A stretch of DNA of 64,000 nt from Chlamydiia bacterium (GTDB lineage Bacteria; Chlamydiota; Chlamydiia; Chlamydiales; JAAKFR01), in NCBI GenBank assembly GCA_963827485.1, contig CAWHBB010000007.1, forward strand, positions 22,806 to 86,805, written 5' to 3'. Under the pieces are notes generated by a model, which saw only the letters and a program-made list of their open reading frames with translations, was not told where the DNA came from and made no database searches. The translations under genes were made by a program, and so were the position numbers. Of the stretch, positions 13,765 to 17,453 are shown one piece after another; positions within the stretch are counted from its first letter, which is position 1, and the number at the start of each line of letters is the position of its first letter.

Positions 13765-13915
13765 ATAGTGGTTTAAGTTTTAGATGATAAAATCGGCGGC
13801 AAGATTTTTGCATGCAGCAAGGTATGGAGAGCGAGGCGACTCGGTGAGCTCGAACACGAAGCGGCATGCAAAAAGAGGCGGATGGATTTTATCATGTAGA
13901 ATTTAATCCACTATA
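13765..13915. repeat. ~155-bp palindromic intergenic element, copy A (between the divergent PagL-like gene and ychF)
   Basis: Near-identical to 17293..17453. The termini are inverted repeats (TATAGTGGTTTAAGTTTTA ... TAGAATTTAATCCACTATA) and an inner stem ATGATAAAATC/GATTTTATCAT flanks a GC-rich core. Confidence 0.8.
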
Positions 13916-13976
13916 TCTAAGTCTGTAAAAAATCTGCAAGAACTGGTAATCTCTCTCTTTATTTCGGTGAGAAGCT

Positions 13977-15059
13977 ATGCCAGAAAGCGGTATCGTCGGT
14001 CTGCCCAACGTGGGCAAATCCACTCTTTTCAATGCACTGACCAAGGCGGGAGCTGCCGCCTCTAACTATCCCTTCTGTACCATCGATCCCAACGTCGGCA
14101 TCGTCTCGGTCTATGATCCGCGCCTTGCGGTTTTAGCCGAGATATCGGGTACGAAGAACATCATCTATGCGGCGATGAAGTTTGTCGACATCGCAGGCCT
14201 TGTCAAAGGCGCCTCGCAAGGAGAGGGGCTTGGCAACCAGTTCTTGGCCCACATACGAGAGACAGATGCCCTTGTCCATGTGGTGCGCTGCTTTGAGTCC
14301 GAGGATGTGATCCATGTAGGCGGCAAGGTCGACCCCATTGCCGATATCGAGACGATCAATCTCGAGCTTGCGCTCGCCGATCTGCAGTCAGTGCAAAATA
14401 TCCTGGTGCGCCTCGGCAAGCTTGTGAAAGGGGATAAAGAGCTTGTCCCTGTCATTGAGCTCCTCCAAAAGGTAGAGGCCCATCTCAATTTGGGCAAACC
14501 GGTGCGCACCCTCATACAGACCGCTGAGGAGCTCGAGCTCATCAGGCCCTATCCGCTTCTGACATCGAAGAAGGTGCTCTATGCGGCCAACGTCTCGGAA
14601 AACGATCTTCCCTCCATGGAGAATGCCTATGTACAGGCGGTGCGCGACTATGCCAAGAAGGAGGGTAGCAGCGTTCTTCCCATCTGCGCCAAGCTTGAGG
14701 CAGAGCTTGCTGAGCTCGGAGCCGAGGAGCAGAAGGCCTACCTAGAGAGCGTCGGGCTCAAAGAGACAGGACTCAATCGACTGATTTCTGCCTCTTTCGA
14801 GATGCTCGGCCTCATCACCTACCTCACCACAGGGGAGATAGAGACGCGCGCCTGGACGATTCACAAAGGCGATAGCGCCTATGTCGCGGCTGGCAAAATC
14901 CACACCGATATACAGAAGCGCTTTGCGAGGGCCGAAGTCATTGCCTATGAAGACTTTGTGAAATACAAGGGGCGAGTGGGGGCCAAAGAGGCTGGCAAGG
15001 CGCTTGCTGTGGGCCGCGACTACATCGTCAAAGACGGCGACGTGATCCTCTTTCTATAG
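13977..15059 (+). CDS. ychF: ribosome-binding ATPase YchF (Obg-family GTPase)
   Basis: 360 aa. The N-terminus is [18 protein letters not shown], with a C-terminal TGS domain. Confidence 0.9.
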
Positions 15060-15066
15060 TCTTCTT

Positions 15067-15149
15067 CATCGTTCTTATCGTTGTATCGTTCTCATCGTTA
15101 ACCTGAGATCCAGAAAAACGATGAGAACGATACAACGATAAGCACGATA
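15067..15149. terminator. bidirectional terminator hairpin between convergent ychF and ribF
   Basis: An ~33-bp near-perfect inverted repeat (CATCGTTCTTATCGTTGTATCGTTCTCATCGTT / AACGATGAGAACGATACAACGATAAGCACGAT) with a 17-nt loop. Confidence 0.55.
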
Positions 15150-15179
15150 GAATTTACAGAAGATGGCAAAGTCCTCTTG

Positions 15180-16118
15180 CTAATGATGGAAGCGATACAA
15201 TGATAGCTTTTCATCGGTTGAGGTGAAGAAGGATTTGGCCTGGGCGATGTCGGAGCGGATCTGCATCCCGAGCTCAACGGGAGAGTCAAATTTCTTCTCG
15301 TTTCTCAAGAAGTGCAAGAAGCGGATCTCCACCTCCTCATCGTAAATCTCCTCATCAAAGTCGAAAAGATGTACCTCGAGAAGGGGAGTCGGTAGCTGTT
15401 TGAGCGTAGGCGCCGTGCCGAGGTTGGCCACCCCCTCGTAGCCTATCCCTCGAAGCGTTGCCTCCACAACCCAGACCCCTGTAGGGGGATGGATGAGATC
15501 GTCGAGAGCAAGGTTGAGAGTGGCAATTTTCAGCGTACGCCCCAGCTGATGCCCCCTCTCGGCTTTCCCCTTGATCGAATAGGGGCGGCCGAGAAAGAGC
15601 GAGGCCTCGTCGAGGGCACCCAATGCGATAAGCTTGCGGATGTGGCTCGAAGAGACCGTCGTATCGTGGATTTTGACCGGAGGCACAAATTGGATCTCAA
15701 AAGAGAGCGCTTGAGCCAGCATAGAGAGTTTCGCAGGCGTCCCCTCACGCTCATGTCCCAGGTGGGCGTTTTCGCCCAAAACCAGTTTTGCAAGCGGAAT
15801 TTTATCCATCAGGAGGAGGAGAAACTCCTCTGCAGGTAGTCTGGAGAGCTCTTTTGAAAATTCAAGAAGGATGAGGCTATCAAAATAGCTCGATAGCCCC
15901 CTCAGGCGCTCCGAAAAGCTCTGCAGCAGGGCAGGCTTGCTGCCCCGGAGAATCTCGCGAGGATGGTTGGTGAAGGTGATCGCAATGCGCTCAAGACCTG
16001 GCTGCTGCACCCTTTCAAAAATCGCTCGGTGGCCCAGATGCAGCCCATCGAAGTTGCCGATCGTGATAACCGCTCTTTCCTTCCGGGGCTTGAAAGCTTC
16101 AAGGAGAGTGATTTGCAT
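15180..16118 (-). CDS. ribF: bifunctional riboflavin kinase / FMN adenylyltransferase
   Basis: 312 aa. The N-terminus carries [13 protein letters not shown] with a C-terminal riboflavin kinase domain. It overlaps truB by 20 bp. Confidence 0.9.
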
Positions 16119-16896
16119 GTGAAGTCAGATTCCTCTTCAAGAAGGGAATAAAATCGAATTTCTCATTTTCGAGCAGCTGTCCATCGATGCAATCCCTGAG
16201 ATGGAAATGGCCGCTACGGGTGCGCTTGAGCTTGGATAGATGGGCCCCCGAGCCGAGCATCAGCCCTATCTCATGGGCGATACTGCGGATGTAGGTGCCC
16301 TTGCTGCAGGTGATGTCGAGCGAGATAAAGGGGTAGTCGTAGCTGATGAGCTCTGTCGTGAGAGCGATTTTAGCGGGCGTCCGTTCTATGGAGACCCCCT
16401 CTCGAGCAAGCTCGTAGAGCTTTTTACCCTTCACCTTTTTGGCCGAAAACATGGGAGGCACCTGCTCGATCTCCCCCTGAAAGTGGGCGATCGCTTTTTC
16501 TACTTCCTCCCGGGTCGGCACCCTCTTGGAACTGGCCATCACTTTGCCGTCGCAGTCGTAGCTATCGGTTGTCACGCCGAGATACATCTCAGCGAGATAG
16601 CTCTTGTCTTGCAGGAGGAGCGCCTCAGAGAGGCGGGTGAAGTGGCGCCCGATCAGCAGCACCATCACCCCAGTAGCAAAGGGATCCAAGGTGCCTGTGT
16701 GGCCGATTTTTTTGATACCCGATAGCCTCCTGAGCGAGCGGATGAGGCTAAAAGAGGTCTTGCCCTGAGGCTTATCCACAAGCAGGATTCCCTCTCTTGG
16801 GTCGGAATCCTCGCTTGCTCGGAGCAGCTCCTTGATGCGGTTCTCCAGAGCAAGGGATTTGAGCCGCAGGCGGCTCTCTGGGGGCGATTTTTCCAT
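16099..16896 (-). CDS. truB: tRNA pseudouridine(55) synthase
   Basis: 265 aa with the motif [22 protein letters not shown]...[16 protein letters not shown]. Confidence 0.9.
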
Positions 16897-16907
16897 AAGA
16901 GAAGCTC

Positions 16908-17273
16908 CTACTCTCCTCTCCCAGTTCGCTCGTCCTCGATCTTCTTGAGGAGCGTATCGATATGGCTCTGCCTTTCCATCCCCTCGTCGAGATGGAAGGC
17001 AAGGACAGGGAAAAATTTGATCGTCATCATTTTGGAGGCGCGAAGAGCGATAAAGCCGCTCGACTGCTTTAAGATCTCCATCGCCTTCTTCTTCTCACGC
17101 TCGCTTCCAAGCACGCTCACAAAGACCTTGGCATGGCTCATATCATGGACGATTTCCACTCCCACGATGGTGACGAAGGGAGGCATATGGGGATTTTTAA
17201 GCTCGCGATGAATCACCTCGGAGATGACCTCTTTGAGGAGGGAGTTCAGGCGGGCAATGCGTTTTTCGCTCAT
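16908..17273 (-). CDS. rbfA: ribosome-binding factor A
   Basis: The ORF track extends to 17342. The conserved RbfA start is [21 protein letters not shown] at 17273. Confidence 0.85.
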
Positions 17274-17292
17274 GGAAGTGGAGGTTAAGTTA

Positions 17293-17453
17293 TATAGTGG
17301 TTTAAGTTTTATATGATAAAATCGGCCGCGAGATTTTTGCATGCAGCAAAAGGTGGAGAGCGAGGCGACTTTGGCGAGTCGGTGAGCTCGAACGTGAAGC
17401 TGCGGGCAAAAAGATGCGGATGGATTTTATCATATAGAATTTAATCCACTATA
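17293..17453. repeat. ~155-bp palindromic intergenic element, copy B (between infB and rbfA)
   Basis: Same element as 13765..13915, with one 10-bp internal insertion (ttggcgagtc). Confidence 0.8.

Follow-up and report, generated by a model that had tools for sequence, protein, structure and literature searches.

A miniature inverted-repeat transposable element, or MITE, is a non-coding and non-autonomous cut-and-paste DNA transposon, dependent on a transposase supplied in trans. The first MITEs to be described in bacteria were the Correia elements (also CREE or nemis), which act as a major regulator of gene expression in pathogenic Neisseria; to our knowledge, the enzyme that mobilises them has eluded Neisseria research since 1988. 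Correia elements carry TA at their termini, duplicate their target and are bounded by a 24-bp terminal inverted repeat (PMC2229807), and they fall into size classes of ~155 and ~105 bp (PMC2229807; PMC2649163). Published variants of the Correia repeat start with tatagtggattaaatttaaa... and tatagtggattaacaaaaa... (PMC5039591), Correia transcripts are RNase III substrates (PMC2649163; PMC10969869), and the repeat has been reported from Neisseria only, with its means of mobilisation undetermined (PMC2649163). Here we describe a palindromic intergenic element of about 155 nt that is present in two copies, A and B, in a 64,000-nt stretch of contig CAWHBB010000007.1 from a Chlamydiia bacterium (hereafter the window), and whose ends resemble those of the Correia repeat. 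We consider it highly probable that this element represents a previously undescribed Chlamydiota MITE family with Correia-type ends; in the literature we found neither a chlamydial counterpart of Correia nor the term 'Correia-like'. The initial annotation had placed two repeat copies at these positions and offered a MITE/REP-like repeat or a structured small RNA as their identity. Its MITE proposal is supported: the element has terminal inverted repeats and duplicates a TA target, intergenic copies are scattered over many genomes, and deletion derivatives as well as nested insertions occur. Its REP-like proposal, and that of a small RNA as the primary identity, were not supported. It had overlooked the Correia identity of the termini, the insertion of copy B in the infB stop codon and the deletion carried by copy A.

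We compared the ends of the chlamydial element with those of the Correia repeat. When one indel is allowed, both ends of the element agree with the Correia repeat over their outer 21-24 nt (TATAGTGGATTAAATTT[T]AAAT); the outer 17 nt are identical (tatagtggattaa[a/c]...) and are followed by AAAT after a 1-nt indel in both arms. The chlamydial right-arm consensus reads TATAGTGGaTTAAaTTTTAaATGATAAAAtCc / TATAGTGGaTTAAaTTTTAaATGA and the Neisseria arms read TATAGTGGATTAAATTT(T)AAATCA, the commonest Neisseria arms in our loci being TATAGTGGATTAAATTTAAATCAGGACAAG and a variant with an extra T. When the family profile was aligned with Neisseria CREE, the alignment covered the outer 21-27 nt only, with E values of 0.01 or worse, and 23 of 24 positions matched between tcatttaaaatttaatccactata in the chlamydial profile and TGATTTAAAATTTAATCCACTATA in the Neisseria element. 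The same profile alignment detected no interior similarity to Correia, and the Correia sub-terminal blocks CCGGTACGG/TCAGGACAAGG (CCGGTACGG / TCAGGACAA) and the Correia core were absent from the chlamydial element.

The two groups are further alike in having the same terminal sequence at both ends and TA termini with target duplication, in comprising a full-length class of ~153-161 nt and an internal-deletion class of ~104-120 nt, and in lying mostly between genes and near them, forming a long hairpin if transcribed, occurring nested and lacking a known transposase. They differ in several respects. The hosts of the chlamydial family are Chlamydiota, not Neisseria, according to the IF-2 match and the labels of the metagenome-assembled genomes (MAGs); GGTTTAA in the chlamydial left arm usually stands against GGATTAA in the right arm; and the chlamydial element forms a palindrome throughout, with an asymmetric core of its own (GGAGAACGAGG...GGTGAGTTCGAAC). 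Outward promoters, IHF binding and RNase III cleavage have been shown for Correia; a consensus scan of the two window copies found no promoter.

A likeness confined to the ends could be a coincidence, or a convergence on an A/T-rich palindromic end, that implies no shared transposase. In favour of this, the ends have a low-complexity, A/T-rich sequence, no similarity to Correia is detectable in the interior, and the 19-mer terminus pattern gave dozens of chance matches in A/T-rich genomes. However, those chance matches were single arms inside genes, not paired ends, whereas the likeness to Correia consists of 17 consecutive identical bases, then AAAT after the 1-nt indel, at the extreme ends of both arms, with the same size classes (~155-161 nt, variants of ~105-120 nt) and TA flanks in both groups. 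We therefore regard this explanation as unlikely; it would be unreasonable to attribute to chance 17 identical terminal bases in both arms of elements that agree in size and target. The simplest reading is that a shared or closely related transposase would act on both sets of ends. A further-reaching proposal, which we advance only tentatively, is that Correia and the chlamydial family are substrates of one transposase lineage that crossed between Pseudomonadota and Chlamydiota, in which case Correia would not be unique to Neisseria. In a bolder version of this proposal, suggested by the strand bias in hairpin stability and by the compensatory changes in the interior described below, the element would move or persist via a single-stranded, strand-specific intermediate and not by cut-and-paste. 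On the MITE reading, the mechanism of the element is ordinary; the cross-phylum link to Correia is what was unexpected. The same ends in a distant phylum indicate that the end sequence is not confined to Neisseria and that the enzyme recognising it probably is not either, which provides more genomes in which to seek that enzyme; if the single-lineage proposal is true, chlamydial genomes offer a fresh route to it.

Evidence for transposition came from a nested insertion and from the site occupied by copy B. In locus L030, a 165-nt member interrupts another copy (GCGGCCGATTT[TA]-insert-[TA]TCATTT; without interruption the family sequence is CGATTTTATCAT). The single TA is doubled, and the outer copy is 161 nt long once the insert and one TA are removed. 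Copy B lies in the gene run nusA-infB-rbfA-truB-ribF, at the infB-rbfA junction as originally proposed, with both genes on the minus strand, and it also overlaps the infB stop codon. The minus strand reads ...CCT GAG TTA TAG TGG ATT... at the infB side and ...CCACTATA TAACTTAACCTCCACTTCC ATG (rbfA) past the other end, and removal of copy B with one TA restores CCT GAG TTA TAA, an in-frame infB stop followed by 16 nt and then the rbfA ATG. In the nearest relative (L134), whose IF-2 is 76% identical, the infB-rbfA spacer is 12 nt long and contains no element. By this reconstruction, copy B inserted in the TA of the infB stop codon, turning TAA into TAG and leaving IF-2 unaltered, and enlarged the infB-rbfA spacer from ~16 nt to ~177 nt. 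The L030 nesting, with which the infB reconstruction and the L134 comparison agree, shows duplication of a TA target on insertion. On each side, an A or T adjoins the TA in 15 of the 16 copies. In locus L074, a copy is nested in a member of a different palindromic family, an intact copy of which lies 0.7 kb away; taken by itself, this nesting is compatible with TA or TATA duplication. The 4-bp TATA duplication that L074 brought to mind was rejected because it would abolish the infB stop and would make the outer copy of L030 too long. A nested insertion was also seen on a Neisseria-like metagenome contig (L123, ~8869-8976), in which a Correia element is broken at TA by a small element with TAGTGGATTAAAATTGCAATGATACGG-type ends; it is analogous to the chlamydial nested insertions.

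We then surveyed the family outside the window. An exact 19-mer terminus scan of one genome per species, which diverged copies could escape, returned 92 loci. About one third were labelled as or resembled Chlamydiota MAGs, several were from Neisseria, and the rest were chance matches in A/T-rich genomes, such as those in a C-terminal coding motif that is conserved in Flavobacteriaceae. Each terminus in the chlamydial loci was accompanied by an inverted partner 156-165 nt away, and the carriers belonged to Simkaniaceae (including Ca. Amphrikana), Rhabdochlamydiaceae, Parachlamydiaceae and unclassified Chlamydiales. No match of this exact scan bore the label of a cultured reference chlamydia, a possible reason why the family had gone undescribed. 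A family profile built from 15 copies recovered all 15 together with partial and interrupted copies, and a profile search found full-length copies (E=1e-24 to 1e-47) in loci of ~10 other Chlamydiota species-representative genomes. The carrier MAGs were JBAPRV01, DAORNI01, CALBHK01, JAUHQG01, CAWBSQ01, JACPWA01, CAMAVL01, CALNYX01, JBGAFY01 and JBGAFT01. The initial annotation had allowed for the two copies being the only ones, with no covariation; the element is instead multi-copy in other Chlamydiota genomes, and its covariation is strong.

Two copies are present in the 64-kb window, JBAPRV01 has six loci, some holding two copies, and pairs occur in three other MAGs. The copies of a within-genome pair were mutual nearest relatives (91, 91, 95 and 85% identity), which fits amplification in place, and main-subfamily copies were 78-90% identical between genomes. 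The IF-2 encoded in the window had a best identity of 76% in a collection of 5.8 billion proteins, and its named matches were mostly from Chlamydiales, Chlamydiota, Chlamydiia and Parachlamydiaceae, with one labelled Verrucomicrobia; judged by these matches, the window organism is a chlamydia. Because neutral intergenic DNA would be saturated at such a host distance, the similarity between genomes suggests either horizontal movement among environmental chlamydiae or tight sequence constraint on the element. Full-length copies measured 152-165 nt, with no open reading frame (ORF) conserved across subfamilies, and the 22 copies examined were all intergenic by rough ORF calls, many of them 5-100 nt from an ORF. 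Internal-deletion variants of 114 nt (L068), 120 nt (L130) and 104 nt (L125, with a different interior) were found, as were minimal forms of 52 nt (L050) and of 29 nt that comprise just the two ends (L035, L036 and L037). In the divergent subfamilies (L055, L061 and L001/L053), little is preserved apart from the termini, the pairing and some few positions of the core.

Minimal terminus-only forms of 24-52 nt, such as TATAGTGGTTTAAATTTTAAATCACTATA, lie at L035 2107-2135, L036 4333-4361, L037 3677-3705 and L050 7382-7433. Others were seen at L027 4649-4677, on a Legionella MAG, and at L174 2216-2239 and L180 2629-2658, on IMG/VR viral contigs, which hints at a wider host range of these ends. The same chlamydial genomes contain other full-length palindrome families of 160-175 nt with different ends (e.g. 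TAGACCTCTTGCG...), located at L074 7498-7672 and 6568-6898, L045 684-852, L037 3761-3922, L059 1062-1230 and 6397-6545, L047 580-764 and L035 2144-2305. They often adjoin or nest with the Correia-type family, so these genomes appear to harbour an entire population of hairpin MITEs. A 93-aa ORF noticed beside two copies in one MAG proved to be two unrelated spurious ORFs.

The two window copies lie in the same orientation and share 91% identity across aligned positions, and are therefore similar and not near-identical as first described; at this identity they are probably old insertions that no longer move. Searching the window for the 19-nt terminus TATAGTGGTTTAAGTTTTA and its imperfect inverse gave four occurrences, one in each arm of the two copies, whereas 100 shuffles gave none, and no match to the element beyond copies A and B was found in the 64 kb. 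The arms (TATAGTGGWTTAA) form terminal inverted repeats of ~24-31 nt, near-perfect over 31 nt and continuing imperfectly out to 55 nt. The terminal inverted repeats, the ATGATAAAATC/GATTTTATCAT stem and the GC-rich core that had been reported were all found in both copies, and copy A starts one base earlier than first given (13764). The difference in length between the copies, previously described as a 10-bp insertion in copy B, is a 9-nt block (TTTGGCGAG, 17370-17378 of copy B). Compared with the 161-nt family consensus, copy B has no insertion and copy A has a 9-nt deletion in the apical hairpin. Folding of the full-length hairpin gave -65.3 kcal/mol for the plus strand and -46.9 kcal/mol for the minus strand of copy A, and -81.2 and -57.8 kcal/mol, respectively, for copy B, with folding z-scores of -8 to -11 in both copies and on both strands. 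The consensus fold derived from 16 full-length copies is paired over the entire element. Compensatory changes, in which both sides have changed and pairing is kept in at least one sequence, were present at 31 of 55 pairs, and 92.3% of cells were paired, compared with 82.3% in column shuffles (none of 500 reached the observed value) and 29-43% when partners were slid by 1-3 columns. The fold and covariation analysis suggested by the initial annotation thus revealed strong covariation; it is that of the palindrome itself and does not discriminate between RNA function and DNA hairpin maintenance.

Several points weigh against a plain MITE interpretation. The argument for TA duplication draws on one nested insertion, the infB frame reconstruction and the Correia precedent, and the copy count for the source genome refers to the 64-kb window alone. 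Neither a transposase nor an autonomous element was found in the window when ORFs of at least 200 aa (~1.8-49.3 kb) were compared with Pfam and NCBIfam, no autonomous element with these ends was found in 185 fetched loci, and plasmid and phage collections gave no element match, the 32-nt end giving chance A/T-rich matches only. In addition, the strand defined by the asymmetric core folded better than its complement in 15 of 16 copies, by ~14 kcal/mol on average, and with orientation set by this core there were 41 G:U cells versus 19 A:C cells. This hints at a strand-specific constraint beyond the plain MITE model, and DDE transposition does not require interior compensatory change. Shared descent accounts for part of the strand bias, not all of it.

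Further searches for a parent element were made among the loci and in metagenome and viral data. No transposase was found between arms 0.4-4 kb apart in the loci examined, and a six-frame search for the IS630/Tc1 YSPELNPIE motif found none in the loci gathered by that stage. Two viral-contig scans returned Neisseria prophage Correia elements and chance matches and no parent element, and one metagenome scan likewise yielded no parent: most of its matches were Neisseria Correia elements, the others being three chlamydial-type copies and a single chance match in a eukaryotic retrotransposon. Four candidates were rejected: a putative full-length element (L001 508-1532) encodes a repeat protein and not a transposase, a solo arm in L044 adjoins an ordinary 110-aa ORF that is no transposase, L119 carries phage structural genes, and L131 has no ORF.

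Part of this evidence could be read differently, with the element as a structured non-coding RNA gene family or a cis-acting RNA, such as an RNase III processing or insulator hairpin, whose RNA function would explain its conservation. The covariation runs along the whole hairpin, the strand bias and the excess of G:U over A:C cells are in keeping with such a function, the asymmetric apical core is conserved across the main subfamily, and 12 copies lie between co-directional ORFs, many copies being 5-100 nt from an ORF, and are probably transcribed. However, the better-folding strand was the transcribed one in 6 of these 12 copies and the opposite strand in the other 6, no Rfam match was found at either window copy at gathering or permissive thresholds, and consensus scans found no promoter or terminator within either. 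The absence of Rfam, promoter and terminator matches and the random orientation to genes make a small-RNA gene unlikely. TA duplication, nesting, deletion derivatives and the 29-nt end-only forms are transposon features, and the subfamilies L055, L061 and L001 keep pairing and termini, not core sequence. An extended -10 motif (TGATAAAAT) in the element and a 20-codon ORF in its core were set aside, neither being conserved in the divergent subfamilies. We judge it very improbable that RNA function explains the conservation of the family, and note that the RNA and MITE readings are compatible, as a MITE can be co-opted.

REPINs consist of two short inverted REP hairpins, have no target duplication and lie beside a RAYT gene. 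That the element is REP/REPIN-like, or some other hairpin element that a Y1/HUH transposase (RAYT or IS200/IS605-type TnpA) mobilises as single-stranded DNA, is scarcely credible: the full-length palindromic architecture, the strand-biased folding stability, which is relevant to a single-strand mechanism, and the several other 160-175-nt palindrome families in the same genomes would suit it, but the long transposon-type terminal repeats end exactly at the duplicated TA, no RAYT-like or HUH gene was found beside the inspected copies or among the scanned window ORFs, and in Neisseria the Correia sequence gave no REPINs and is not among the RAYT-tied repeats (bioRxiv 10.1101/2021.07.10.451892). 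Both the REP/REPIN-RAYT systems and the chlamydial element are abundant extragenic palindromes that have long been maintained; REPINs are RAYT-linked and without transposon-type repeats or target duplication, and the chlamydial element is the reverse.

The MITE interpretation also allows comparison with other small mobile repeats. ERIC/IRU of enterobacteria are likewise intergenic, with a length of ~127 bp and TA flanks, and are transcribed into stable hairpins that alter mRNA decay; they differ in their shorter terminal repeats, their sequence and their hosts. Rickettsia palindromic elements (RPEs) and Coxiella QMITEs are, like the present family, palindromic mobile repeats of obligate intracellular bacteria; RPEs, unlike the chlamydial copies, which were all intergenic, often lie in frame within genes, and there is no sequence similarity. 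RUP of Streptococcus pneumoniae is a small non-coding, TA-targeting MITE with terminal inverted repeats and serves as the precedent for tying such MITEs to an IS630-type transposase, that of IS630-Spn1 (PMC2229807). RUP has a parent insertion sequence with matching ends, whereas none was found for the chlamydial element, and the two share no sequence similarity.

Insertion takes place at TA in A/T-rich intergenic DNA, with duplication of the TA; as a MITE, the element would be moved by cut-and-paste through a transposase supplied in trans. The mobilising enzyme is probably the same as, or a close relative of, the one that moves Correia elements. It would probably be a TA-targeting DDE transposase of the IS630/Tc1-mariner type, an assignment made from the TA target and the RUP/IS630-Spn1 precedent only. 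Copies co-transcribed with genes, such as copy B, would form long double-stranded RNA hairpins that RNase III, as in Correia, is likely to bind or cut, altering mRNA processing and stability. The element brings long hairpins into conserved operons such as nusA-infB-rbfA. In copy B, the hairpin of the transcribed strand has a folding energy of -58 kcal/mol, with the infB stop at its 5' base and the rbfA ATG 19 nt beyond its 3' base, and in the infB-rbfA transcript it is, by the same analogy, a probable RNase III site. Because its stem joins the two ends of copy B, it may also keep the infB stop and the rbfA start in their original proximity. Copy A lies between the PagL-like gene and ychF, as ORF and domain assignments bear out, and likely adds 152 bp to the divergent promoter region of these genes. 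The features of both copies and of the adjoining genes are listed in Table 1.

Table 1. Copies A and B of the element and flanking genes. Coordinates are positions in the 64,000-nt window.
Feature	Position	Strand	Remarks
Copy A	13764..13915	+	152 nt, flanking TA dinucleotides included; nhmmer E=1.8e-39
Copy A, left terminal inverted repeat	13764..13794	+	TATAGTGGTTTAAGTTTTAGATGATAAAATC
Copy A, asymmetric conserved core	13826..13855	+	GGAGAGCGAGGCGAC/TCGGTGAGCTCGAAC
Copy A, right terminal inverted repeat	13885..13915	+	GATTTTATCATGTAGAATTTAATCCACTATA; outer 16 nt = Correia repeat
Copy B	17293..17453	+	161 nt = canonical family length; nhmmer E=5.4e-44
Copy B, left terminal inverted repeat	17293..17323	+	
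Copy B, conserved core	17355..17393	+	Apical hairpin intact (GACTTTGGCGAGTC)
Copy B, right terminal inverted repeat	17423..17453	+	Includes present infB stop codon
PagL-domain ORF, 167 aa	13246..13749	-	Pfam PagL 38.3 bits; start codon 14 nt from copy A
ychF	13977..15059	+	Start codon (ATG) 61 nt from copy A
rbfA	16908..17273	-	ATG 19 nt (17274-17292) from copy B; a longer ORF call to 17342 would begin within the element
infB (IF-2)	17449..19900	-	Two frames, shift between 18954 and 18971
infB stop codon TAG	17449..17451	-	Supplied by end of copy B

The infB gene is read in two frames: residues 192-329 of the relative's IF-2 align to frame -2 and residues 336-836 to frame -3, and the source gene call is a truncated product of 436 aa. 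This reflects either an assembly indel or a genuine frameshift in an essential gene. A 3.5-kb short-read Logan contig from the same genome (L093, run ERR11523675) starts and ends inside the two copies; since the contig ends fall in both, the element breaks assemblies. Gene callers can be misled by it as well, since an ORF may begin or end within the element. A near-perfect hairpin at 15068-15148, built of ATCGTT-like repeats, has arms of 32 nt (97% complementary); it lies between the convergent ychF and ribF ends and is possibly a bidirectional terminator. Two long imperfect intergenic palindromes, with arms of 42 and 48 nt, lie at 47368-47465 and 63755-63857 and are unrelated in sequence to the element.

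Elsewhere in the window, a ~9.5-kb segment (34868-44494) beside a tRNA gene (44402-44473, minus strand) is a probable integrated island. It encodes a tyrosine integrase (43068-44126), a DUF5906/VapE-like protein (40081-41103) and a primase-like protein (38316-39323), and contains a 44-nt exact copy of the tRNA end at 34880-34923 and a second copy, 89% identical, at 35930-35976. A 680-aa ORF (11215-13257) had no Pfam or NCBIfam match; its DNA includes two sets of tandem repeats, one with units of 120 nt (3-4 copies, 97-99% identical) and one with units of 183 nt (3 copies). Tandem arrays of paralogous genes occupy 7050-11123, 58886-61044 and 61079-63731, with spacings of ~1.4, 1.1 and 0.9 kb, respectively, and 68-76% DNA identity, and one member of the first array has weak beta-propeller matches. 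Eukaryote-like domains such as the U-box are common in effectors of intracellular bacteria, and an ORF at 4891-5724 on the minus strand carries a eukaryote-type U-box domain (Pfam E=1.9e-10).

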